Notes: generated by a model not told the origin, from the sequence alone. A stretch of DNA of 64,000 nucleotides from an uncultured Bacteriovorax sp. (GCA_964583925.1 CAZOXW010000003.1:3297-67296), one strand, 5' to 3'; numbered from the stretch's first letter, positions 27,794-42,819 are shown. Translations and numbers: made by a program.

Positions 27794-29155
27794 ATGGTTT
27801 TTTCAAACAGAATCATTTTAATCGAGCCAGATTTAGAGCGCTGTATGTTCCTTAAGAGGAATATATCTCGACATTTAAAGGCCGAGGTCGTTGAATTAAA
27901 AAATGTCCAAGATGTAATAAAATTTTTAATCAGCGATTCTAAAATTGATCTCATCTATGCACAAAATAAATTTTCTGGAGTCAATCATCTTGGTGTTCTT
28001 GCAAGCTTTCTTAAAAAAAGTAAATTAGAGATTCCCCTTCTCTACCAAGGCGAACCAATTTTACTTTATGATAACGAATGTGAGCTAGACTCTGATTTAA
28101 GTTTAAAAAAAATAATTAGAAATATTTCTACGACTTTAAACATAATTCTAGATGAAGAAAGTGAATTATCTCTTACGGACTTCAAAAGTATACCGATAGA
28201 ATTTTTTTTCCAAGTAGACCAAACTTTTAGGGGATGTGCACTTTATCGAGGTAATAATAATACCTCACCTGATTTAGATTATGAGATACTCTATGAGTCT
28301 CAGGAAAAAATAAGTCGAGATGAAATCATCCCTTTTTATGAACTCGGTATTAAAGAACTATTTGTGCTTGAAGAATTTGAATTTGATGTCTATTTTTATT
28401 CTACTGAAAAATTAATAAAAAAATTAAATGATCTAAAATTTCAAGGTAGATGCCTTGAATTAGAACTACTAAACGATGCATATCTTGTCTCTCGCAAAAT
28501 GATTGAAAAAGGAAAACTAGACACTGAATTAAAACTAATTCTCCAATCTATAGCGCTTAAACTAAGTGAACTATCAAATCAAAATATTAAGGTATTAATT
28601 GCCAATCTAAATAATGCACGTCTTGATTATTCATTTAAAAGATTATTTCTTATCCATGTTCTCGGCGAAAAAGTTCTTGAGATGATGAGTTTGAAATCAG
28701 AGTCATCACTTTTAAAATATATTCACATTAATCTCTTTCACGATATTACTATTTTTTCAGAAATTCTTTTATTAATTCATTCAGAATCTGAATTAGAAAC
28801 TTCAAACCTAACAAAAAATGAAATCACTCAAGTAAATGAACATGCACAAAAGGCAGCTGAACTTGTCAATACACTCTCTATATCTCCGCAAGGCACTGCA
28901 GAAATGTTGATCGAACATCATGGTTCAAAATCAGGATTAGGCCTTAAAAACAAATTGAGCATCAATCTTTCACCAATGATGATGATTTTTATTGTCGTTG
29001 AAGAGTTTTCAATCGAACTACTAAAAAATGAAGGCGAAATAAAATTTGAATATATGGCACAGACTTGTAACAAACTAGGGAGTATCTATAATAAAATAAC
29101 TTTCAAGGCCGCACTAAATTCACTTATTGAGATAACTCAAAATTATGAAAAATAA
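27794..29155 (+). CDS. Pseudo-receiver plus degenerate HD(-GYP)-like domain protein
   Basis: N-terminal REC-like fold (IILIEPD); LFHDI, H...AA.L, EHHG but no GYP motif. Confidence 0.6.
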   Translation: MVFSNRIILIEPDLERCMFLKRNISRHLKAEVVELKNVQDVIKFLISDSKIDLIYAQNKFSGVNHLGVLASFLKKSKLEIPLLYQGEPILLYDNECELDSDLSLKKIIRNISTTLNIILDEESELSLTDFKSIPIEFFFQVDQTFRGCALYRGNNNTSPDLDYEILYESQEKISRDEIIPFYELGIKELFVLEEFEFDVYFYSTEKLIKKLNDLKFQGRCLELELLNDAYLVSRKMIEKGKLDTELKLILQSIALKLSELSNQNIKVLIANLNNARLDYSFKRLFLIHVLGEKVLEMMSLKSESSLLKYIHINLFHDITIFSEILLLIHSESELETSNLTKNEITQVNEHAQKAAELVNTLSISPQGTAEMLIEHHGSKSGLGLKNKLSINLSPMMMIFIVVEEFSIELLKNEGEIKFEYMAQTCNKLGSIYNKITFKAALNSLIEITQNYEK

Positions 29156-30630: not shown

Positions 30631-32028
30631 ATGAAAAATTCTGTCGCGAATACATTAGTCTTAAAAACTGTCTTTTTCAGTTTACTCATTACACTCCCAT
30701 TTATTTGGGGGCATATGTACTATGAGTATCGCCAAGAATTAAAAAACATAGATAAGGCCTTTCTTCAAATTGAAATTTCAAAAATAAAATCTTTAACTAC
30801 GGCCGTTTGGTTTGTCGATCGAAATCAAGTTGAATCTCAACTCGAAGGTATTTTAAAAACTTCACCATTTGCAAAAGTTACTTTAGATGCAAAAGTAATT
30901 GGAAAAGTTGAACATAACTCTAGCCTATCCTCAAATGGTAAAATAAAAAAATATGATTTAATCAACAATGATGATCAACTTGGAACTCTCACCATTCAGG
31001 CCTCAAATGAGCCAATGTATAATTCACTACTCAAACGTTTTTTTATTATCTTTATTTCTGTCATCTTAAACACTTTTTTTGTAGCAAGCTTTGCTCTCTA
31101 TCAGTTTTCTAAATATGTCACAAGGCCACTTGAAGGCCTTTCAAAAATTGTCAGACAGGCCAGTATTGATCAGTCGCACTTATTAAGTCGCCCGGCACAC
31201 AATGATAGTAACCTTAATGAACTTGAGGAAATTGATTTTGCCATTGCAGAGATGAGAAGTAATTTTCAAAATTCACATAATGAACTTATGAAAACTCAAG
31301 AACAAATTGAGAATATGAAAAAGATAAGCACGATCGGTGAATTAACAGCAAGTGTTTCACATGATTTTAAAAACTTTCTCTCTATCATGATTCATACGCT
31401 AGAAATTTTAAAAAGAAACGGAGAAAATCCAAGTTTTAACATCAACGATGAAAAAAATCAAAAGCATATTACAAATGCGTTTGAAGCAGCAGAAAAGGCC
31501 AATAACTTAATCACCACATTATTAGACTACTCATACCACCATAATAAAGAACCTATAAATTTAAATCTATACGATCATCTCCAAGACATGCGAGGCTTGC
31601 TTGAAGTCGCAATCACTAAGCGAATTCAACTCAATATCAACTTAAAAGATCAACAAATTAAAAACTGTAACCTAGATATAAATATTTTAGATAGTGCCCT
31701 TTTAAATCTTTGTGTAAATGCAAAAGATGCAATTAAAAATAACGGGGAAATTCAAATTGAATTATCTAATGTAACTTTATCAAATAGAACTCCAGCACAA
31801 AATGGCGATTACGTACTATTAAAATTTAGCGATAATGGACATGGAATGACCCCTGAAGTTCAAAAGAAAGTATTCGAACCTTTTTATACCACCAAACCAC
31901 CTGGCAAAGGTACAGGACTAGGTCTTAGCATGGTTTCTAATTTTGTAAAAAATGCTGGCGGTTTTGTTGAAGTACAAAGTATAGAGGGAGTCGGAACCAG
32001 CTTTTTTCTTTATTTCAGAGCAGTCTAA
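30631..32028 (+). CDS. Membrane sensor histidine kinase (HAMP, HisKA, HATPase)
   Basis: SVSHDFKN H-box, NLCVNAKDA, DNGHGM, FEPFYTTK, GTGLGLS. Confidence 0.92.
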   Translation: MKNSVANTLVLKTVFFSLLITLPFIWGHMYYEYRQELKNIDKAFLQIEISKIKSLTTAVWFVDRNQVESQLEGILKTSPFAKVTLDAKVIGKVEHNSSLSSNGKIKKYDLINNDDQLGTLTIQASNEPMYNSLLKRFFIIFISVILNTFFVASFALYQFSKYVTRPLEGLSKIVRQASIDQSHLLSRPAHNDSNLNELEEIDFAIAEMRSNFQNSHNELMKTQEQIENMKKISTIGELTASVSHDFKNFLSIMIHTLEILKRNGENPSFNINDEKNQKHITNAFEAAEKANNLITTLLDYSYHHNKEPINLNLYDHLQDMRGLLEVAITKRIQLNINLKDQQIKNCNLDINILDSALLNLCVNAKDAIKNNGEIQIELSNVTLSNRTPAQNGDYVLLKFSDNGHGMTPEVQKKVFEPFYTTKPPGKGTGLGLSMVSNFVKNAGGFVEVQSIEGVGTSFFLYFRAV

Positions 32029-32183
32029 TGCGACTTTTCACTTCTTAATATTTCGTAAATATATTTTTTATCTTTGTATTTTAGTCCATATTTTACTTTT
32101 TCAGCTTCATCTTTCTTTAAAAATTTTCGCTTTTGATTTTCTTTTTTTAATTCAATTTTTCTTAATTCAAATGCTTGATTCAT
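32025..32183 (-). CDS. Small basic protein (52 aa), not in ORF track
   Basis: Hand translation MNQAFELRKIELKKENQKRKFLKKDEAEKVKYGLKYKDKKYIYEILRSEKSH; AAGGAG RBS inside the MATE 3' end; fills the whole gap between MATE and the kinase. Confidence 0.65.
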   Translation of the reverse strand: MNQAFELRKIELKKENQKRKFLKKDEAEKVKYGLKYKDKKYIYEILRSEKSH

Positions 32184-33531
32184 AATTTCTTATCTCCTTT
32201 AAAAGTTTTAAAACTAAAATGACTGATGCAACAAAAAGTGCTAAGTTAATAGAGCCCCAGAACGCAGTAACTCCACTTAACCAAGCTATATTAAATTTAA
32301 ATGCTAAAATATATCCAAATCCGATCCCAATGCCCCAGTAGCTACACGTTTGAACAATTGATGCAAAATCAGATTTTCGAAAGGCCCTTAAAGCACAGGC
32401 AGACAAAACTTGAGTCATATCAAAAATTTGATACATTGCCCCCCAAAAGAAAATTTCAGATGCTAAATTTAAGACCTCAACTTCTTTTGTATAAATTTTT
32501 AGAATACTCGTTTTAAAAATCAAGGTTCCCAAAAGTATGAAGAAGGCATAAATATATCCGACAGAAAATGCAATTTTTAAGGCCAACTTAAAGTCGTTTT
32601 TATTTTTTCTGCCAATCGCATTTCCAATTTTAGATACCGCTAATGACCCAAGACTACTCGGCACAATGTAGACGATGCCAAAATAACTTAGCGCCACTTG
32701 ATTAGATGCAATTGCAACAGCGCCAAGCTTGGCAACAAAAAATGTAATGCAAGAAAATAAGCTTATCTCTGCAAAAAATGCGACAGCAATAGGAGCACCT
32801 TCTTTAAAAAGTTCTCTTTGGGCCTTTAATTCAAAAAAGCTGGCCCATAAGTTATACATCTTTGAAAAAGAAAATATATTTTTAACAGGGGCGGTTTTTA
32901 TTAAATAGATGACTCCAATCCAAAGAGATATAGAGGTTGCAAGTCCTGTCCCCGCCCCTCCAAGCCCCATGTATCCATATATACCTTGAGTTAGTAAGTA
33001 GCATAGAGGAATATTGACTAAAAAACCCACGATCCCACTTTTTAATAAAGTTTTTGTCTTATTAATTGAAGTTAGAAGTGAGTAGTACGAACGATAAATC
33101 ATTATAGCTGGAAATGAAAAAGAAACATATTTTAAATAACGTTCTGACGAATTAATTAAATCTGTTTCTGTTTTTAATATTTTTAAAAACGAGTGGGCAC
33201 CAAAGTAGACGAGAAAAAAACAAAATATTCCGACAAATATCGCTAAAATTAAAGTATTTATAAAATATTTGCGGAGTGATGATTCATTCGAAGCACCAAA
33301 ATCTCTCGATAAAAATGGAGAGGAGCCCATTACGAGCCCCATCATTGTAACTTGTATTATTAAAAATAAGTTAGCGCCAATTGATACACCCGCAAGATCT
33401 GACAATCCTACTTTTCCTGCAAAAATAACATCCACAGTCCCCAAAATAATTTGTAATGCCTGTGCGAGGACTAGTGGAATTAATAATTTTAAATAGCTCT
33501 TTAATTCATTATAATAATGCGAGGAAATCAT
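32167..33531 (-). CDS. MATE family efflux transporter (NorM-like)
   Basis: VD.IFAGKVG..DLAGV.IG, about 12 TM helices, EGAPIA..FFAE, YQIFD..QV....ALR. Confidence 0.92.
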   Translation of the reverse strand: MISSHYYNELKSYLKLLIPLVLAQALQIILGTVDVIFAGKVGLSDLAGVSIGANLFLIIQVTMMGLVMGSSPFLSRDFGASNESSLRKYFINTLILAIFVGIFCFFLVYFGAHSFLKILKTETDLINSSERYLKYVSFSFPAIMIYRSYYSLLTSINKTKTLLKSGIVGFLVNIPLCYLLTQGIYGYMGLGGAGTGLATSISLWIGVIYLIKTAPVKNIFSFSKMYNLWASFFELKAQRELFKEGAPIAVAFFAEISLFSCITFFVAKLGAVAIASNQVALSYFGIVYIVPSSLGSLAVSKIGNAIGRKNKNDFKLALKIAFSVGYIYAFFILLGTLIFKTSILKIYTKEVEVLNLASEIFFWGAMYQIFDMTQVLSACALRAFRKSDFASIVQTCSYWGIGIGFGYILAFKFNIAWLSGVTAFWGSINLALFVASVILVLKLLKEIRNYESSI

Positions 33532-35231
33532 ATATTTAACCTATTATCTAATATATGTCCTAATATTTTTCGCTGTTCCTTTTTTAAATTCAAAGATGGC
33601 AAGTCAAATTCAAAATTATTATTCTGAGTTTTAACAAAAAAGTTAACAAGCTCATTGAATTCTAAGCGCTCATTCTTTTTTGTTTTTTTACTTAGAAGTA
33701 ACTGTATTTTGCGATCACTAGTTCCAGTTGATTTATAAAGGGGGGTATTAATTCTTGCTTCAGCGAGAGACTCTTCAGGATTATATTCTATACTTTTTGT
33801 AATAAACTTAATGTTCTCAAGTATTTTTTTAATATGCTCTAGCGCAAATACATCCTCATCGTATTTATAATCTACAATAACTTTCATCTGATTTAGTAAA
33901 TCATTTGCAGAACTTCCAAGATGAACATTTCTAAAGAAAGGTTCAAAAGAATATAGCGCCTGCCGACTTACACCTTTTAGGCATTCATAATAATTTTCTT
34001 CAATTTCAAAATCTCGAACAAAGATAAATGATTTTACAATCTCTTCTACTTCTTTTGAGAAAAGATCAAGAATGAGCGGCAGGTTAGTCTTTTTAAACCC
34101 AAGCTTTGACAATAAACAAGCACTTCTTTCGCGCTCAAAATTTTTTACAAATAATTTATAGTAGATTTCTTTGTCGATATTCAATTCAAAACAAGTATCA
34201 ATTATATCTAGCAATTGCTTATAGGTTTTGAAACAATTTTCAAACTGCTCACTAAGTCCTGTTGACCATCTAACAATATCATCAATCCTGTAACTCTTAT
34301 AGAATGCCCCCATTCTCATTGTAGTAGAAAGGTCTAGCATTCCACCAGAAATTAGAATATTGTCACCATCCCAATCAAACCAAACAAACATATTATTCAT
34401 TTCATATAAGGCAAGATTGCGACTTAGCTCCTTAGTCCAAGACAATATCCAATCAAGATATTTGTCAGACTTGATCTCAAACTTTCCGTGCTCAAATTCA
34501 CGATTAATATAATGTTCAAAAATTTCTTTTGAAGTAGAAATATTTTTTTGAAAATATGGGGCCAGAATATGTGCTGGGCGGATCATATTTTGATGAGCTT
34601 TGACAATGATGCTTTGACCTTTAGGAAATTTAATCATGGCCAAAGTTCGTTCAGTATCAAATCCCAATTGGTGCAAAACTTCACTCGAAAAAACAGTATG
34701 AACAGACTCTTTATCAAGTGCAATTCCAGATGCATAATATGAATTTCCATCACCTGTTCGAACTGCTTTTTTATGCAGATTATATCCAACACTAAGCTTT
34801 GTACCTCCAGTTCCCCTTCCTACAATATCCCAATGAGCGCCATTTTTTGACTTAAACTCACCGTACCAAATTGAACGCCCGTCTCCCGATGTTTTGCCTG
34901 TTTCATCTTCGTGTTGCATTTGCAAATATCTAGTGGCCATGTATTCACCACTTTTAATGGTCTCTTTCTTAAATTTTCGATTGTTTTCAATGTCATATTC
35001 ATTAATGATTACAATCCCTAGATCTTGAACAACTTCGCATTCAAAATCTTCTGTTATCAACTCTGGTAAATTTTCCTCAATTAACCCTATTTCTTTTGCC
35101 AGCTTAAAATTAAAATATTGCAAATGTCCATTGGGCCGAACTCTTGCTTTATAAAGAACACAAAAATTTTCAACTTCTTTTAATTTATGACTACCATCTA
35201 AACGATGTAATTGTGTTAGTCCTCTATCCAT
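33528..35231 (-). CDS. Divergent SelO/YdiU-family (pseudokinase-fold) nucleotidyltransferase
   Basis: FN..LA.EIG, GDGR, RGTGGT, TER.LA, IRPAH, DGDN...G..LD; AGGAGG RBS. Confidence 0.72.
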   Translation of the reverse strand: MDRGLTQLHRLDGSHKLKEVENFCVLYKARVRPNGHLQYFNFKLAKEIGLIEENLPELITEDFECEVVQDLGIVIINEYDIENNRKFKKETIKSGEYMATRYLQMQHEDETGKTSGDGRSIWYGEFKSKNGAHWDIVGRGTGGTKLSVGYNLHKKAVRTGDGNSYYASGIALDKESVHTVFSSEVLHQLGFDTERTLAMIKFPKGQSIIVKAHQNMIRPAHILAPYFQKNISTSKEIFEHYINREFEHGKFEIKSDKYLDWILSWTKELSRNLALYEMNNMFVWFDWDGDNILISGGMLDLSTTMRMGAFYKSYRIDDIVRWSTGLSEQFENCFKTYKQLLDIIDTCFELNIDKEIYYKLFVKNFERERSACLLSKLGFKKTNLPLILDLFSKEVEEIVKSFIFVRDFEIEENYYECLKGVSRQALYSFEPFFRNVHLGSSANDLLNQMKVIVDYKYDEDVFALEHIKKILENIKFITKSIEYNPEESLAEARINTPLYKSTGTSDRKIQLLLSKKTKKNERLEFNELVNFFVKTQNNNFEFDLPSLNLKKEQRKILGHILDNRLNI

Positions 35232-35259
35232 GACGACTCCTCCTAAAATTTATCTTTTA

Positions 35260-36546
35260 TTATGTTAAACTTATTTCATTTTCATCTAATTGATTGATCA
35301 ATATTCCAAGCTCTTCAAACAAAAGCAGCTGATGGTAATCTTTCATGAGGTCTGCATAATCTTTATTCACTAATAAAATGTAAGCGACAGTGTCTAAAAG
35401 CGACTTTGGTGGATATATTTCTTGCCCTTTTTCCTTTAAAAATGCATGGTCTCGATAAGATTTTAAATTGACGAGAAGGTCTGTATTAAAAGTTTCAATT
35501 GTTGTCTTTTTCCAATTTTGCAAACAAAACAATAATCCAAAGTGATCATCATTAGCTTTATTATAATCTATCCCACCATCTAGTAGTGCAATGTATTCTT
35601 TTACTTGATTTGTTCCACTCGTTTCAAATGCTAATTTGTTTATAAAGCCTGCTGTTCCAGAAATTCTTGGATTTAGTTCAATTAAATAAGGCCCATCTTT
35701 TGTCAAAAATACTTCAGTATGGGCAAATCCATTTTTAAACTTAGCGAGATCTAATACTTTCAAGGCAAAATCAGAAACTAAAATTCCATCAGTCGAATCA
35801 ATGTTTACTTTTTCAATATGTCTATAAATAGGATTTCCGTTGTATATAATTTTTTTATAACGATTTACAGCAACGATCCGATGCTTACCTTCAACGCTGG
35901 CGGTATCTACAAAATATTCTTCACCAGTAATTTTTTCTTGAATTAAAAAATCATTAAAAAGGCAATTGGGGCCAAGTGAACGATTCGCATCACTCTGTAT
36001 AAACTCTAAAATTCCTTCTGTTGAATCAAATTCTTTTGCAGACAAAGAACCACTCCCATTTACCGGCTTTACAAAAAAAGTTGAATTCCAATCTTTTAAC
36101 TCATTTAATTTTTTTTCACATAAATTGCGATTACTAATACGTATTTCTTTAATAGATGGAAAAAAATTGTTCTTTAATTCAAGATTTAAAATATGCTTAT
36201 CGTTTCTAAGGGCAGAATGGACAAAATCGCAATTATCTTTAAATAAGTACTTCTTAATGTTGTCGGCCAATTCAACTGCATACTCTGTTCCGTATAAAAC
36301 ACTAATTACTTCTAATTTTTTAAGTTTTTCTGCGATCTTTTTATACCCATTTTCATCTAAACTCGTCATAAGTTCTATGGAGCTAAAAAGATTTTTTTCT
36401 AAAGAATTATTTTTTGAAAGACGTAATCTATCTTCTGAACTTAGAATGCAAATAAGCTCTATTTCCTCTTTTTTAAACTCATTTGCTAAGTAAGTTGAAG
36501 AGATAATTGGATCTACAATTGCTATAACTTTTTTATTCATAATCAT
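35260..36546 (-). CDS. ATP-grasp ligase (L-amino-acid ligase / NikS-like clade)
   Basis: AIVDP.SS..LA, G.EYAVELAD, DK, VKPVNGSGS, QEKITGEEYFVD, GFAHTEV, IELNPRISG; true start may be ATG 36540. Confidence 0.85.
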   Translation of the reverse strand: MIMNKKVIAIVDPIISSTYLANEFKKEEIELICILSSEDRLRLSKNNSLEKNLFSSIELMTSLDENGYKKIAEKLKKLEVISVLYGTEYAVELADNIKKYLFKDNCDFVHSALRNDKHILNLELKNNFFPSIKEIRISNRNLCEKKLNELKDWNSTFFVKPVNGSGSLSAKEFDSTEGILEFIQSDANRSLGPNCLFNDFLIQEKITGEEYFVDTASVEGKHRIVAVNRYKKIIYNGNPIYRHIEKVNIDSTDGILVSDFALKVLDLAKFKNGFAHTEVFLTKDGPYLIELNPRISGTAGFINKLAFETSGTNQVKEYIALLDGGIDYNKANDDHFGLLFCLQNWKKTTIETFNTDLLVNLKSYRDHAFLKEKGQEIYPPKSLLDTVAYILLVNKDYADLMKDYHQLLLFEELGILINQLDENEISLT

Positions 36547-36738
36547 CCTTGATTAAATTTAAAAAATCTATTTTGATGAATTTTAATTTTAAAAAAACGG
36601 GGATGTCACTTGAAAATAAACATTTTATGTCGATATCAGATTCAACTGGTCTGACAATCTATCGTCAAACTAAAGCCACTCTAAAATCAACCATGGTATT
36701 TTGGTCGGGAACTCGTTTTTTACTACAATTTATCGGTG

Positions 36739-37245
36739 TTATTTTATATGATACTCGGTTAGCCCAATTGCAACAGCTCCCAAGAGGGCATCTTTAGCAG
36801 AACAATGTTCATTATAGCTAAAATATGATTCATTTTTTGTATAGAATAAAATATTCGTGTCTAGCTTTTGTTTAATTAGCAACCCATTTTTATCAATTTC
36901 ATAATTCTGAAATTTCTTATAAGTTGCTGGCAGTTCTTCGTCTGAATTATAAAATACGTCATCTGCAACTCTTCCAATTTTAAAACTAGACAATGAACTT
37001 TCGTCTTTCTCCACTTCTACATCTAAAAATAAATTATCTCCACGATATAAAAGAAGCATATTTTTGCAGTTAGGTGTACTTTTGCAAATCTCTGTTAGTT
37101 GATACTCTTTAGAGTTTATGGTTACAATTGTTTTTCCTAAAACTAATGCTGATTTTGATACGATACATTTATTTGTACTTTTCACAACGGAGCAAGAACT
37201 AAGAAAAAAAATGAGGCCAAAAATTACGACTAATAATCTATTCAT
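36739..37245 (-). CDS. Hypothetical lipoprotein (168 aa)
   Basis: Start moved to ATG 37245: MNRLLVVIFGLIFFLSSC lipobox. Confidence 0.65.
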   Translation of the reverse strand: MNRLLVVIFGLIFFLSSCSVVKSTNKCIVSKSALVLGKTIVTINSKEYQLTEICKSTPNCKNMLLLYRGDNLFLDVEVEKDESSLSSFKIGRVADDVFYNSDEELPATYKKFQNYEIDKNGLLIKQKLDTNILFYTKNESYFSYNEHCSAKDALLGAVAIGLTEYHIK

Positions 37246-37354
37246 TACTAATAGTTTACACGAAATAGGTCTTTTGCAATATGGCCAAATCCTAAATTTA
37301 AAGGATAATTTATATAGCTTATGTGGGCCAAAGAAATTTTTTAGGTAGAACAAG

Positions 37355-38518
37355 ATGAAACAATTAAAAATTGCCATCATAGGCAGTGGACCAGCTGGAA
37401 GTTTTTGTGCATATCTGTTGCAAAGCTTGGGGCATGAAATTTATTTATACGACAAAAAAACTTTAGTAAAGCGCAAGCTATGTGGAGAATATTTAACTCC
37501 CTTGGGAATAAAACTTTTAGATCAATATCATCTACTAGCACCGTTATCCAAACTATTTTCCAAACTTGATGGAATGGTTTTAGTCGATGCAAAAAACAAT
37601 CGAACTATTCCGTGTCTATTCCCAGTGGTTGATAATTATTCCTATGGCCTTTCAGTTAATCGGCAAATATTTGACCAATACTTGATCGATTTAGCAATAA
37701 ATTCTGGAGTGCATTTGAAATTTGGCCATTTATTAAAAGAAATTCTTCCTACAAATAATGGCCATGAATTAATTTTTAATGAAGGTGAAAAGCGAACTTT
37801 TGATTTGGTTGTTGCTGCTGATGGAATTAATTCATCTATTGCACATCAACTGAAGCATATTGGCCCATATACCAATAAAAGGATTGCATTACATGCCTAT
37901 CTTCTTAAAAATAAAGAAAAAGATTTAAGAATGGGAGAAATGCATATCTTTTGCGATGGAAGTTATTGCGGTTTAAACCCAATCACAGATAAAGAAGTCA
38001 ACTTCTCTATTGTTATCGATTCAGATGAAATTAAAAATGGCAGCAAAAATCTACACGATCATATTAATAAACGTATCAATTCATCGCAAAGACTTAGAGA
38101 ACTTTTTTCTCCAATTAGTGAAGACGTAGAGATCAAAACGTCTATGCCTCTATCAAATAATAATCATTATATTGCTGGAAAAAATCTGGCCTATATTGGC
38201 GATGCTTCAGGTTTTATAGACCCTTTGACGGGCGAAGGTCTAACTAATGCACTCCTGTCGGCAGAACTGCTCTATAAATCACTACAGGCTTCAGACTCGA
38301 TAGACGAAGCTCTAATTAAATATAAAAAAGTAAAAAACTCGACTATGAAATCTAAAAAATTTCTCAACAATATATTTCAGCTAGTAATTAGAAATCCATT
38401 TTTAGTTACTTTCATAGGAATAGTTTTATATAATAACGAGAAACGATCTCGTGCCTTTATTGGAATTATAGGCAATGTCTATTCACCGCTTAAGGGTTTT
38501 ATTAAATTTTTATTTTAA
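37355..38518 (+). CDS. FAD-dependent oxidoreductase/hydroxylase (geranylgeranyl-reductase-like; SrsC-like by context)
   Basis: GSGPAG, KLCGEYL, VAADG..S, IGDASGFIDPLTGEG. Confidence 0.88.
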   Translation: MKQLKIAIIGSGPAGSFCAYLLQSLGHEIYLYDKKTLVKRKLCGEYLTPLGIKLLDQYHLLAPLSKLFSKLDGMVLVDAKNNRTIPCLFPVVDNYSYGLSVNRQIFDQYLIDLAINSGVHLKFGHLLKEILPTNNGHELIFNEGEKRTFDLVVAADGINSSIAHQLKHIGPYTNKRIALHAYLLKNKEKDLRMGEMHIFCDGSYCGLNPITDKEVNFSIVIDSDEIKNGSKNLHDHINKRINSSQRLRELFSPISEDVEIKTSMPLSNNNHYIAGKNLAYIGDASGFIDPLTGEGLTNALLSAELLYKSLQASDSIDEALIKYKKVKNSTMKSKKFLNNIFQLVIRNPFLVTFIGIVLYNNEKRSRAFIGIIGNVYSPLKGFIKFLF

Positions 38519-38527
38519 AGGAACTAT

Positions 38528-39583
38528 ATGGGTTACATCATCGATGTTAAGACAAGTCATCCAAAAAATTATACCTCGCAAGAAGATATTAGAGTATTAC
38601 TAAATGAAGTGTGGCCGAAATATTCAAAATATATCGATCAATTTTCTAAAAGCTCCAGTGTTGTCGGCCGCCATCTGTCGCTTCCCTTAATTGAATATAA
38701 AAACCTAGGAAATTTTGGCGAACGAAATAACCATTGGCTAAATACTGCCCTCTCGCTTCAAAAAGAAAATATGAAAAAAATTTTTGAGCAAAACAATGTT
38801 TTACCAAATGACGTCGGGGCCATTTTTTCAACTAGCGTGACAGGCCTTGCGATACCAACTCTTGAATCACGATTGATGAACGAGTTTAAAATAAATCCAA
38901 GAGCAAAAAGAATCCCAATTTTTGGTCTCGGATGCCTTGGCGGTGTCGCACTAATAAATCGTGCTACTGACTATTTGAAATCGTTTCCTGATGAAGTTGT
39001 CATTTTAATGGCGACTGAATTATGTAGCTTGACTTTTCAATTTGAAGATCAAAGCATTGCTAATTTTGTAGGTACATCACTTTTTGCTGATGGAGCTGCA
39101 ATGGTTTTAATGGCCGGAAAAAACCATCCTCTCCACTGTAAAGCAAAGTTAGAGGTATTAAATACTGCTTCATTTTTCTATCCAGACTCTGAAAGGATTA
39201 TGGGGTGGGAAATTGTTGCTAATGGTTTTCAAATTGTCCTAAGTGGAGACGTACCCTTAATTGTAAAAAATAATTTGTCTAAAAATTTGTCCGAATTTTT
39301 AGAGGAGAATAAATTAAATATAAATGACACAAAATTCTATATTTCGCATCCAGGTGGCCCAAAAGTTTTAGATGCCTTGTCTGAAATTGTAACCAACCTA
39401 AAATCTCCATTTGAACTGAGTTATCAAAGCTTAAAAGAACTCGGCAATATGTCATCGGTTTCTGTTCTTGATGTCATGAGAAGAAACTTCGAGGCCAATC
39501 GACTAAAATCAGCAGAGATTGGAATGATGCTTGCAATGGGACCTGCCTTTGCATCTGAAATAAATTTAATCAAGGTGCTCTAG
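38528..39583 (+). CDS. Type III polyketide synthase (chalcone synthase-like, SrsA/BpsA-type)
   Basis: Catalytic Cys in GLGCLGG, His in SHPGGPK, Asn in GNMSS; SLFADGAA, AMGPAF..E. Confidence 0.94.
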   Translation: MGYIIDVKTSHPKNYTSQEDIRVLLNEVWPKYSKYIDQFSKSSSVVGRHLSLPLIEYKNLGNFGERNNHWLNTALSLQKENMKKIFEQNNVLPNDVGAIFSTSVTGLAIPTLESRLMNEFKINPRAKRIPIFGLGCLGGVALINRATDYLKSFPDEVVILMATELCSLTFQFEDQSIANFVGTSLFADGAAMVLMAGKNHPLHCKAKLEVLNTASFFYPDSERIMGWEIVANGFQIVLSGDVPLIVKNNLSKNLSEFLEENKLNINDTKFYISHPGGPKVLDALSEIVTNLKSPFELSYQSLKELGNMSSVSVLDVMRRNFEANRLKSAEIGMMLAMGPAFASEINLIKVL

Positions 39584-39584
39584 A

Positions 39585-40154
39585 TTGCTTACTTATAAAT
39601 TTAATCTCATCATTTTAATTTTTTACCTTGTTCAACGAGTTTCAGAATTATACATTTCAAAAAAAAATGAGTTGGCCTTAGCGAAAAAACAAAGTTTCGT
39701 TGAAAAATATAAAGCTAATTCATTAGTGATGAAATTATTTCATCTTTCATGGTTTTTGGTACTTTTTACTTCAGTTTTAAAATCTAATAAGATGGAACTT
39801 AATCACCCTTTTATCTATATTCCCCTACTCTTTTTCCTGCAGATCATACGTTTTATTTCCATCACTAACATAAAAGAGAATTGGGTGCTAAAAGTTTTGA
39901 GGCTTGAAGATTTCACCCCTCACACAAAAGGAATATATCGACACATTCGCCATCCGAACTACCTCGTTGTTATATTTGAAATAATTATTGTTCCAGTACT
40001 ACTAAATCTTGCCACGATTGGAGTAATTTTTTTCGGATTGAATTTAATCCTCTTGTTATTTAGAATTCACTATGAAGAACTTGAGCTAGAAAAGTTTGAA
40101 GAGTATGCTCAATATAAAAAGAATACTTACCGCTTAATTCCCTTTATTTATTAG
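39585..40154 (+). CDS. Isoprenylcysteine carboxyl methyltransferase family (SrsB/BpsB-like)
   Basis: QRVSEL.ISKKNE, G.YR.IRHPNY..V..E, RI..EE..L. Confidence 0.88.
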   Translation: MLTYKFNLIILIFYLVQRVSELYISKKNELALAKKQSFVEKYKANSLVMKLFHLSWFLVLFTSVLKSNKMELNHPFIYIPLLFFLQIIRFISITNIKENWVLKVLRLEDFTPHTKGIYRHIRHPNYLVVIFEIIIVPVLLNLATIGVIFFGLNLILLLFRIHYEELELEKFEEYAQYKKNTYRLIPFIY

Positions 40155-40164
40155 GAGTAAATAT

Positions 40165-40740
40165 ATGAAATTTTTTGTCGCACTAACTCTATTTTTTTCA
40201 CTCCGTCTTTTAGCTACTGAACTTAAAATAAATTATTCTTCTTTTGAAGAAGCAAACAAAAGCTCTCAATATTTAAAATTTAAGGGTAAATCTACCAAGC
40301 TTGGCCTAATAACTACAGAATTTATAGGACTTTCTAAATCTTACCTGCTCAAGTATGACATCAAGGATAACAAACTCAGCACACTAGAAATTATTATTGA
40401 TAAAAAAATGCTTGATACTGATAATAAAATGCGTGATGAAAAAATGCACAACCAATCTCTACTATCAGAAAAAAACAATGAAATTAAAGTGCGACTTTTA
40501 AGTTCTGTAGAATTAAAAGAAGAAAGTTCTGCAGTGGTAAATGCCAGTATTAAAATTATAGAAAAAGAGCTTACACTCCCTCTGACCTATCAAACTAAAG
40601 AGGATGGCAATCAATACATAATAAGCTTTACTACAAAATTTTCATTTGTTGAAGCAGGAATACCTGACCCAAGTATCATGGTTGCAAAAGTGGATGAACA
40701 TTTTTCTATAGAAGGTAAAATAATCTTACCTAAGAATTAA
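40165..40740 (+). CDS. YceI-like lipid/polyisoprenoid-binding protein
   Basis: Signal peptide; LDTDNKMRDEKM pattern; beta-barrel strands; AGGAG RBS. Confidence 0.72.
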   Translation: MKFFVALTLFFSLRLLATELKINYSSFEEANKSSQYLKFKGKSTKLGLITTEFIGLSKSYLLKYDIKDNKLSTLEIIIDKKMLDTDNKMRDEKMHNQSLLSEKNNEIKVRLLSSVELKEESSAVVNASIKIIEKELTLPLTYQTKEDGNQYIISFTTKFSFVEAGIPDPSIMVAKVDEHFSIEGKIILPKN

Positions 40741-40746
40741 CTTAAT

Positions 40747-42819
40747 TTATTTTTGTACTAGCTTATTGTATTCATCTTTATGATTAATGGAAGAATACAA
40801 TAATCTAGGCAATACATAGATATCTAAGATAGTCCCTGTGAATATAATGTACGCCAAGACCCCGCCAAATTGCCGAATGGGAAGAAAACTATTTATTGTA
40901 AACATTCCAAAACAAACAAAAAGCAAAAGTCCTGAAATTATCACAGGCACAAGCACCGCACTTGAATATTCTTCAAAGTTTTTAAAAGGATGATGAACTC
41001 TAGCATGAATTATATGAAACGAACTATCACCAATCAGGCCCAAGGCAATTGAAAACGTCATTACCGTAGCAATATTTATAGAAAAATTAAAAAGATACAT
41101 AAACAAAAATGAAGATAAAACAGGTACTAAACTAACTATACAAAACGCTATAAATATTTTTAGCTTTCTAAAGTAGAAAAAGGCACAGGCAAATACCACA
41201 AGAGCAGAGGACAAAAAACTCTTATAGAGCACATTTATCATGGTCTCTTGTGAGAGCATTAATGTGTAATTTAGCCCCCCAAGTGTATATTTATAATTTG
41301 TCTCTCTTAAGACCTGCTCAATAAGTTCTAAATCTTTTTTATAATCTAAAACATCACTTGGCCCGCCTAAGATCGTCATGCGATAAACTCTATCAACCGG
41401 GTATGACTCTTGAAGTGAGAGTGGAAGTTGTCCTCTTAATGTGAAATAAGAAATCATACTTTCAGGCAAAACGTCTTTGCCTGCGTATTTTGAATTAATA
41501 TTTCGAATAAAGCTATTGTTGGATAAAACTTTTATGTCCTTGCGTCCAAGCTTTAACGATATTTTTTCCTCTATGCTTTCAAGCAATCGAATATTTGTTT
41601 GATCTAGCTCATTTGGTAAATCAACAATAATTTCCAATACAGGAAGACCTGCAACTGTTTTTGATACATCTAAAATATTTTCTCGGAATCCTGATTGAGC
41701 TGGAAAATATTTAGTTGCATCAGTTAGAACATCTAGACGCTTTGGAATAAAAATCGAAGCAAAAAGAGATATTAAAATAATTAAATAAACTAATGCCAGA
41801 CGAGATGACTTCTTACTCAAACGATCTAACTTTAGACTAAACTTTGTGACATCATCTTTTTTTATCTTGGAGTCTAATATACTATACCACAAATAAACGA
41901 GACCTGTCCCAATGAGAACAAGCTGAGCAGACAAATTTCCAAATACAACAATAACACTTACATCGGATGTTATTAAACTTAAGAAACCAATATATGTAGT
42001 AAACATCATTAAAAATACAGGCTTCCATTTGTTTTTTAAAAATTGCTTTAATGAACCAAATTCTTTTATCGAAAAGAAGCTATGAAAACTAAGTGATAAT
42101 GTTACTGTAAAAATAACCAAAGGTATGATCGAAGTAACCATATTCATATCATTTTCTAAAATTCTTAAAGTGGATAGGCTAATCCCGGCCATAAAAAGAC
42201 AAGGAAGATAAAGAATTAATGATTCAAGTATATTTCTAACAAAGAAAAAAGTGATAAAAAAACCTAGAACAAACATCGCAGGAAACAATGTCTCCTGGAT
42301 AGATAAAGAATAATGATCTAGTAGAAAGTTTGTAAAAGGTATTCCGGCCCAATTATTTAATTTTCGATCTTTAAAATACATATTATTATTTGCATGCTGT
42401 AAAATATCTTTTAATCGAACATCGCTATTGTCAACAAACAATGCGGCAAGATAGTTAGTTCCTTTCAGCTTTATTAAATCATTACTTTCAACTTCTGGGA
42501 CTGATCGAATCGATTTATTTAGACTCTGATCTGTTATGATTTCACATTCATCAAAGCAAATTGATTTTAATCTATCAATCTCTTTATAAAATTTTTCAAC
42601 TTCACTTGGATCATTTACATTTTTGATGGTTCTTTTGAATACTAAGTGCTGCTTTTCAGCTACTTTTGAAGTAAAGCTTGTATACAAAGAGAGTGCATCT
42701 TTGCCTAAAAAAATGGATTCAGGATTTCTTTGCTTAATTTTACTCCCATAAATCAATGACAAAGTACCTATGGCCAAGATAAAAACAAGAAGGACTTTAT
42801 CTCTATTTTTTATTCCCAC
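40747..42819 (-). CDS. MMPL/RND-family transporter
   Basis: Two TM bundles separated by extracytoplasmic domains; SIALGLIGDSSFH, F.PIRQFG. Confidence 0.78.
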   Translation of the reverse strand: MGIKNRDKVLLVFILAIGTLSLIYGSKIKQRNPESIFLGKDALSLYTSFTSKVAEKQHLVFKRTIKNVNDPSEVEKFYKEIDRLKSICFDECEIITDQSLNKSIRSVPEVESNDLIKLKGTNYLAALFVDNSDVRLKDILQHANNNMYFKDRKLNNWAGIPFTNFLLDHYSLSIQETLFPAMFVLGFFITFFFVRNILESLILYLPCLFMAGISLSTLRILENDMNMVTSIIPLVIFTVTLSLSFHSFFSIKEFGSLKQFLKNKWKPVFLMMFTTYIGFLSLITSDVSVIVVFGNLSAQLVLIGTGLVYLWYSILDSKIKKDDVTKFSLKLDRLSKKSSRLALVYLIILISLFASIFIPKRLDVLTDATKYFPAQSGFRENILDVSKTVAGLPVLEIIVDLPNELDQTNIRLLESIEEKISLKLGRKDIKVLSNNSFIRNINSKYAGKDVLPESMISYFTLRGQLPLSLQESYPVDRVYRMTILGGPSDVLDYKKDLELIEQVLRETNYKYTLGGLNYTLMLSQETMINVLYKSFLSSALVVFACAFFYFRKLKIFIAFCIVSLVPVLSSFLFMYLFNFSINIATVMTFSIALGLIGDSSFHIIHARVHHPFKNFEEYSSAVLVPVIISGLLLFVCFGMFTINSFLPIRQFGGVLAYIIFTGTILDIYVLPRLLYSSINHKDEYNKLVQK

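Follow-up and report, generated by a model that had tools for sequence, protein, structure and literature searches.

An ATP-grasp ligase, a SelO-like protein and a MATE transporter in an operon-like arrangement of an uncultured Bacteriovorax sp., and a SelO-like family partnered with Peptidase_S51

Introduction

Characterised L-amino-acid-ligase clusters, such as those of bacilysin and dapdiamide, include exporters. The ligases themselves (BacD/YwfE, RizA, TabS, DdaF; PDB 3VOT, BL00235) are ATP-grasp proteins of ~420 amino acids (aa) with a common catalytic signature. Members of the SelO family, in turn, have a versatile chemistry, with AMPylation (PMC8097203), UMPylation (bioRxiv 10.1101/692707) and NAD+ hydrolysis (PMC13391479) all described, and in a published study of the neighbourhoods of canonical SelO, neither an ATP-grasp nor an S51 partner is mentioned. 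Here, we analyse a locus of an uncultured Bacteriovorax sp. in which genes for an ATP-grasp ligase, a SelO-like protein and a MATE-family transporter are followed, on the same strand, by a 52-aa open reading frame (ORF). The locus lies in a stretch of 64,000 nucleotides (nt; GCA_964583925.1 CAZOXW010000003.1:3297-67296), hereafter the window, to which positions refer unless another contig is named. An earlier note on this DNA had proposed that the four genes form an undescribed system, a small biosynthetic unit making an exported, possibly nucleotidylated, peptide metabolite. As shown below, the combination is best read as a one-off operon in one uncultured bacterium, and not as a new conserved "system". 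The four minus-strand ORFs were borne out by the window sequence and are as follows:

35260-36546, minus strand: ATP-grasp ligase, 428 aa, L-amino-acid-ligase type, PRK07206-like
33528-35231, minus strand: SelO/YdiU-fold protein, 567 aa, divergent, predicted nucleotidyl (AMP/UMP) transferase
32167-33531, minus strand: MATE-family efflux transporter, 454 aa, its start overlapping the SelO-like stop by 4 nt
32025-32183, minus strand: 52-aa ORF, Lys/Glu-rich, coding status unproven

The gene combination is found in a single organism

We compared the neighbourhoods of the SelO-like gene and of the ligase gene with those of their relatives. Among 84 loci from other organisms that carry a SelO-like relative, examined with flanks of up to 10 kb, none matched the window ligase, MATE or small ORF at E ≤ 1e-3; likewise, none of 81 loci with ligase relatives, gathered from the contexts of these relatives and from a metagenome scan, contained a match to the hidden Markov model of the SelO-like family or a MATE related to that of the window. 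In a Pfam census, neither SelO nor MatE was among 91 genes located at most two positions away from 27 distinct ligase relatives. The arrangement was repeated only in L001-L003, contigs of the same organism with 99.5–100% identity. The search for ATP-grasp, SelO and MATE genes together across genomes, which the earlier note had put forward as a check, therefore gave no second occurrence. Both observations that the earlier note had named as refuting its proposal were made: the combination is absent from the loci of SelO-like and ligase relatives alike, and the SelO-like gene belongs to a family that lies in other contexts and has another partner, a Peptidase_S51 gene (see below). By that criterion, the idea of a conserved four-gene system is refuted. 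With a single occurrence and no comparative support, the cluster is not one to be prioritised as a conserved pathway.

Two other candidate assignments were discarded. The contig with the closest ligase relative (L169) also carries a MatE gene, which we rejected as a conserved pairing, since its product is 23% identical and it lies 4 kb away, with five unrelated genes, including an integrase, in between. An anti-phage defence system was rejected as well, with no PADLOC match for the five proteins tested. Separately, distant ligase relatives with 25–27% identity (L102, L106, L107, L111, L112, L116, L119 and L132) are found in another conserved cluster, which comprises a Met_asp_mut_E-like protein of ~498 aa, a protein of ~419 aa, the ATP-grasp ligase and a Pantoate_transf-like protein of ~270–300 aa, with a convergent GntR/aminotransferase regulator.

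The SelO-like protein has a SelO fold and a predicted active site

The product of the second gene matched the Pfam SelO model (PF02696) with 30.0 bits (cut-off 22.8) over its N-terminal half (model positions 38-271 of 466), and scored 40 against the NCBIfam YdiU subfamily (cut-off 431) and 22 against the SelO equivalogs (cut-offs 850 and 900). Its best PDB match by sequence had an E value of 0.098, so that from its sequence the protein resembles SelO weakly; the evidence from structure is much stronger. We modelled the protein with AlphaFold2 (AF2) from 64 homologues, obtaining a model with a predicted local distance difference test (pLDDT) score of 79.7 and a predicted template-modelling (pTM) score of 0.83. 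With this model, the top nine Foldseek matches were all SelO/YdiU structures (E 9e-14 to 5e-12), the next one having an E value of 0.1; the template-modelling (TM) scores, normalised to target length, were 0.66–0.72 (best, 0.70–0.72), at 13–15% identity.

The active site was mapped by profile and pairwise alignments onto Pseudomonas syringae SelO, for which the roles of the nucleotide and metal residues K113, E136, R176, R183, N253 and D262 have been described (PMC8097203), with these correspondences:

SelO K113: window R139, a conservative swap
SelO E136: window E184
SelO R176: window K211, a conservative swap
SelO R183: window R218
SelO D252/N253: window D290/N291
SelO D262: window D300

Residues R218, D290, N291 and D300 were invariant in 64 of 64 sequences of the SelO-like family. 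Since the nucleotide and catalytic positions are kept, the enzyme looks catalytically competent, and from the model it looks like a SelO-fold protein with an intact active site, a predicted nucleoside monophosphate (NMP) transferase. The earlier assignment of this gene to SelO is thus upheld by Foldseek, in which only the SelO/YdiU matches were significant, and by the kept catalytic positions. The window protein has the GDGR motif in common with SelO/YdiU (PDB 6EAC, 6K20, 6LNA), although it is ~90 aa longer and differs in its C-terminal region. A C-terminal redox Cys or Sec was not found in its last 40 residues (NELVNFFVKTQ...ILDNRLNI).

Most relatives of the SelO-like gene are coupled to a Peptidase_S51 gene

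The SelO-like protein has more than 1000 relatives, of ~610 aa and 32–39% identity, to which it is homologous over its full length (E 1e-82 to 1e-95). When one genome per GTDB species was scanned, a relative was present in at least 592 species genomes and, among the matches listed, all 80 were from Bacteriovoracia or other Bdellovibrionota metagenome-assembled genomes. A Peptidase_S51 gene was directly downstream of the SelO-like gene in 72 of the 84 loci and present in 77, with an overlap of 4 nt between the SelO-like stop and its own start in 63 of those 72; the loci of this family are L007-L087, an example being L007 (8001-10492). This partner matches the Pfam model with 102 bits and is PepE-like by NCBIfam (52 bits, under the equivalog cut-off). 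No S51 homologue was detected within the whole window (tblastn, E ≤ 1e-2), where the slot held by the peptidase in those 72 loci is occupied by the MATE gene. Other recurrent neighbours of the family, a VanX-like M15 dipeptidase, Exo_endo_phos and PLDc (34 loci each), are also missing from the window. Contexts varied in those family loci without S51.

The window protein has the motifs TSGDGR, GTG-T-LS, RPxH and DWDGDN...D in common with the family partnered with S51. It differs from it, together with a second protein (P0003; 554 aa, 38% identity), in being shorter, in lacking the S51 partner and in having DLS where the others have DYG. The position of the γ-phosphate-binding SelO Lys113 is a Cys in 62 of 64 family members and an Arg in the window protein and P0003, which also have the reciprocal R-to-K swap at the position of SelO R176; the Cys may point to another way of handling the nucleotide, or of redox control, in the main family. 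These two proteins form a separate long branch in the tree, and a profile search of 5.8 billion proteins did not yield a third member of the clade, the scores being 1117 and 1064 bits for the two and then 419 bits. P0003 is preceded by an EamA gene and followed by a 61-aa ORF, with convergent DHFR and ThyA genes downstream; its locus contains no ligase and no MATE gene. A link through a shared exporter was rejected, because the EamA beside P0003 is unrelated to those beside ligase relatives. We also dropped the idea that P0003 comes from a contaminated eukaryote assembly, since a sibling series of accessions is present among metagenome contigs.

The organism has a low guanine-plus-cytosine (GC) content (33%) and is probably, judging from its proteins, a deep-branching relative of Bacteriovoracia. 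Its sequence occurs in metagenomes from wastewater, groundwater and freshwater, 85–98% of the sampled words being present in the wastewater and groundwater runs. The window proteins are 28–53% identical to genes in Bacteriovoracia loci, and the SelO-like protein, with 38%, is in the same range, which fits the organism's own copy of the family in a deep-branching relative and not a fast-evolving extra paralogue.

In the literature searched, we found no paper on SelO/YdiU with S51, PepE or cyanophycinase, and no description of this large SelO-fold family of predatory Bacteriovoracia, translationally coupled to a PepE-like peptidase. Because Bacteriovorax strains are culturable, the family offers a tractable entry to new SelO chemistry.

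The ligase belongs to a rare subfamily

The first gene product matched the Pfam models ATP-grasp_3 (40 bits) and ATP-grasp_4 (36 bits), both over the cut-offs, as well as NCBIfam PRK07206 (194 bits, cut-off 302) and DdaF (68 bits, cut-off 840); among structures, it matched L-amino acid ligases with E values of 4e-10 (30vh) and 2.5e-5 (3vot). It keeps the ATP-grasp signature (K160, GEEYFVDT, HTE and ELNPR), and residues K160, E210/Y211, H276-T277-E278, E290 and R294 were invariant in an alignment with its relatives. From these matches, which agree with the earlier assignment, the protein is predicted to be a ligase of the L-amino-acid-ligase type whose catalytic residues are intact, its apparent similarity to characterised ligases being at the level of the family. 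It has the size and catalytic signature of the characterised L-amino-acid ligases, but its identity to any of them is low and all the equivalog cut-offs are missed. By comparison with those L-amino-acid ligases that cluster with exporters, the window has a MATE as transporter, whose gene does not adjoin that of the ligase; no warhead-biosynthesis genes were found near the latter.

The subfamily is rare. A word-indexed search returned five non-self relatives, and an exhaustive search of 1.84 billion cluster representatives returned 76 at E ≤ 1e-30, the best with 38% identity. Their distribution is patchy, among hosts with 35–62% GC, with a Tn3 transposase adjoining in one case and an integrase nearby in another.

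Transporter genes are enriched beside ligase relatives

We examined 11 independent contexts of ligase relatives with 25–41% identity, the window included. A transporter gene was an immediate neighbour in six of them and was within three genes in nine, as follows:

L170 and L096: MFS adjoining the ligase relative
L092, L098 and L093: EamA adjoining the ligase relative
L097: Vut_1 adjoining the ligase relative
L088: MFS, three genes from the ligase relative
L123: EamA, two genes from the ligase relative
Window: MATE, two genes from the ligase

The exceptions, P0153 and P0154, are at contig ends, with one flank visible. As a control, we used 123 genes of these loci that are at least five positions away from the ligase, among which MFS_1 occurred in 10 and transporters made up ~8–10% of the genes. 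This gives expected frequencies of ~19% for an immediate neighbour and ~47% within three genes (binomial p ~0.01 and ~0.02), indicating a moderate enrichment of transporters beside ligase relatives. Moreover, four different ligase relatives have EamA proteins beside them that share homology (E 1e-8 to 1e-31), which makes a ligase-exporter unit credible for that sub-branch; from it, we infer by extension a similar pairing with the window MATE. Therefore, of the small biosynthetic unit with export that had been proposed for this locus, a ligase plus an exporter is a reasonable part, given the enrichment, whereas the four-gene system falls with the lack of co-occurrence. This rare subfamily of ligases beside exporters may make exported small amide metabolites.

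Three loci of ligase relatives had further features. In L092 (7137-13522), an EamA gene is followed by genes for tandem paralogous ATP-grasp ligases (P0124 and P0125), beside a 966-aa ankyrin-repeat protein that suggests a host-associated bacterium. In L169 (5850-8737), the gene of the closest ligase relative (P0153, 38% identity) is divergent from genes for a VanX-like Peptidase_M15 and an Amidase_2, with an integrase-like gene adjoining. The ligase relative of L088 (213-9834; P0122, 41% identity) ends a cluster of 62% GC beside a Tn3 transposase, which also encodes two paralogous AMP-binding-like proteins (412 and 459 aa), an alpha/beta hydrolase and an MFS transporter, and looks like a mobile small-molecule cluster.

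Gene junctions, packing and transcription

The ligase gene stops with a TAA at 35262-35260 and the SelO-like ATG is at 35231, whereas the SelO-like stop and the MATE start overlap in an ATGA (33531-33528). The MATE gene stops with a TGA at 32169-32167, and the ATG of the 52-aa ORF (32183) is 17 nt inside it, preceded 10 nt upstream by an AAGGAG (32199-32194). These junctions, as described in the earlier note, can be read directly from the sequence. Other features of the locus are:

35232-35259, minus strand: intergenic spacer of 28 nt, with an AGGAGG at 35244-35239, 7 nt before the SelO-like ATG
36580-36609, minus strand: candidate operon promoter, sigma-70-like, GTGACA-18-TAAAAT, 10/12
30631-32028, convergent: CHASE5 histidine-kinase gene, its last 4 nt overlapped by the stop of the 52-aa ORF

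Tight packing is the norm in the window, where 28 of 38 same-strand neighbour pairs overlap or are at most 30 nt apart, the coding fraction is 93% and the median gap is 11 nt; the spacing of the junctions thus says little on function. The GC contents of the three genes (0.30, 0.32 and 0.34) match that of the window (0.33), giving no sign of recent acquisition.

The best match to a promoter on the minus strand (36609-36580) is within the 192-nt gap upstream of the ligase gene. Promoter-like sites upstream of the ligase were fewer than in shuffled sequences (21 versus 28.5), so this site is weak evidence, a consensus match only. There was no terminator-like site between the genes of the operon, and no Rfam element or riboswitch at the gathering score, either in the leader or in the whole window. 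Operator-like repeats upstream of the ligase were rejected, as only weak AT-rich inverted repeats were present. Two metatranscriptome datasets had matches, in contigs of 168 and 174 nt, both inside the SelO-like ORF and crossing no junction, their other matches being 18–26-nt fragments of unrelated contigs. DNA contigs from related strains (≥95% identity) do span the ligase/SelO-like and SelO-like/MATE junctions, indicating that the gene arrangement is stable within the species.

The MATE transporter and the 52-aa ORF

The third gene product matched Pfam MatE with 168 bits, in two repeats, and TIGR00797 matE over its full length with 236 bits (cut-off 147), confirming its identification as a MATE transporter. 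It has the full-length architecture of NorM-type MATE pumps but is not a NorM equivalog (204 bits, with the cut-off of 950 unmet).

The 52-aa ORF (14 K, 7 E and 4 Y) is in the most AT-rich stretch of the region, with 21% GC (0.34/0.15/0.15 by codon position). The window contains 73 ORFs of 50–99 aa, of which 63 are necessarily spurious, and the K+E fraction of the 52-aa ORF (0.40) is larger than that of all those 63. It had no match in Pfam, NCBIfam or PADLOC, and was seen only in the same-organism contigs L001 and L002, where gene callers called it. Its extreme K+E content, its plausible ribosome-binding site and these gene calls are weak signs in its favour. Any link with the 61-aa ORF that follows P0003 was rejected, as the two show no similarity. 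A terminator or structured RNA in this region was also rejected (fold z −0.65 and no terminator-like site). The ORF is probably outside the chemistry of the locus. As it has neither a homologue nor any feature expected of a ligase substrate, the earlier suggestion that the peptide is the substrate found no support.

Interpretation of the locus

We lean, with slightly better than even confidence, towards a lineage-specific operon in which the ligase and the exporter are a plausible functional pair and the SelO-like protein is a displaced member of the S51-partnered family of Bacteriovoracia. A promoter in the 192-nt upstream gap would probably drive the three genes. The ligase would join two small substrates, a carboxylate and an amine, by an amide bond, by way of an acyl-phosphate intermediate, and the MATE, as a cation antiporter, would export the small amide-linked product or transport its precursor. 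The SelO-fold enzyme would bind its nucleotide in a flipped orientation and transfer NMP, perhaps to the ligase, to the ligase product or to unrelated proteins, its gene being the lineage's copy of the family that would have lost its S51 partner and now lies between those of ligase and MATE. The substrates of the ligase, the direction of transport and the role of the SelO-like protein in the pathway are what we infer here. Several observations weigh against this account. Co-transcription is presumed from gene order, and no metatranscriptome contig spans a junction; tight spacing, as the norm of this genome, says little. The enrichment of transporters is modest, with families that differ between contexts, and in the window the SelO-like gene stands between the ligase and the MATE. 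P0153 and P0154 are among the closest ligase relatives, and their downstream genes are beyond the contig ends. Finally, the genome outside the window may carry a second SelO-like copy, linked to S51, so that the gene in the window may be either relocated or a paralogue.

It is possible, though we deem it improbable, that the three proteins act in an integrated pathway, with the ligase making a peptide, the SelO-like enzyme nucleotidylating it, or AMPylating the ligase or a self-protection target, and the MATE exporting a metabolite of the peptidyl-nucleotide type. The operon-like order, with a translationally coupled SelO-like/MATE junction, the intact SelO-like active site and the versatility of SelO chemistry would agree with it, as would the fact that both neighbours of the family handle small peptides, these being the PepE-like dipeptidase in 72 of 84 loci and the dipeptide-type ligase here. 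However, the combination was found in no other organism, the clade-mate P0003 has neither partner, tight junctions are uninformative in this genome, and characterised SelO enzymes act on proteins or NAD+, not on small peptides. A bolder version, in which the Bacteriovoracia SelO-fold family acts on small peptides and here nucleotidylates the ligase product, giving an exported peptidyl-nucleotide as a microcin-C-like 'Trojan horse' without a ribosomal precursor, seems to us less likely still. We also regard as unlikely a chance juxtaposition, in a compact genome, of a stress-response protein AMPylase, a detoxification MATE and a horizontally acquired accessory ligase. The packing of the window, the rarity, patchiness and wide GC range of the ligase and its single encounters with a transposase and an integrase, the generic nature of the MATE and the varied SelO-like contexts without S51 are all as such a juxtaposition would have them, but adjacent transporters are enriched beside ligase relatives and the three genes match the window in GC. 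Finally, we give very little credence to a ribosomally synthesized and post-translationally modified peptide (RiPP) of the graspetide kind, in which the 52-aa peptide would be cross-linked by the ATP-grasp enzyme or nucleotidylated by the SelO-like protein and exported by the MATE. The ORF does have a plausible ribosome-binding site, is called in L001 and L002, fills the whole 138-nt gap between the MATE and kinase genes and contains Lys, Glu and Tyr as possible ligation or AMPylation sites. Nevertheless, it has no homologue, including the ORF after P0003; a Lys-rich frame is to be expected of A-rich DNA with 21% GC, most small ORFs of the window being spurious; and the loci of ligase relatives contain no related small ORF, L088-91 carrying an unrelated one of 85 aa. 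Besides, the matches of the ligase are to L-amino-acid ligases, and its NCBIfam hits at E ≤ 0.1 included no peptide maturase of the ATP-grasp type (graspetide/RiPP).

Surrounding genes

Positional orthology of the window with Bacteriovoracia loci was a weak signal, mostly of scattered matches to single loci, and was set aside. The sole hint of synteny for the clade of the window protein and P0003 is a gene at 27794-29155 (plus strand) for a 453-aa protein with no Pfam match, which has a 26%-identical homologue of 464 aa at the P0003 locus (L006, 11403-12797); in both cases, it is convergent with and downstream of the SelO-like gene.

Upstream of the ligase operon, the longest ORF at 36739-37380 (minus strand) has 213 aa and matched nothing in Pfam or PADLOC. 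Read from an internal Met, it begins with MNRLLVVIFGLIFFLSSC, a signal of the lipoprotein type that includes a lipobox, so this gene probably starts near 37245. Divergent from this lipoprotein gene is a packed operon at 37355-40740 (plus strand; gaps of 9, 1 and 10 nt) that encodes a geranylgeranyl-reductase-like flavin adenine dinucleotide (FAD) monooxygenase, a type III polyketide synthase, an ICMT-family methyltransferase and a YceI-like protein. The polyketide synthase has Chal_sti_synt N and C domains and is DpgA-like (133 bits), and we take the gene set to resemble the type III polyketide synthase clusters for phenolic lipids (Srs/Ars-type). Adjoining this operon, at 40747-42819 (minus strand), is a 690-aa ORF with no Pfam match at E ≤ 1e-3; hydrophobic stretches, seen by eye in the middle and at the C-terminal end, suggest that it may encode an uncharacterised transporter.

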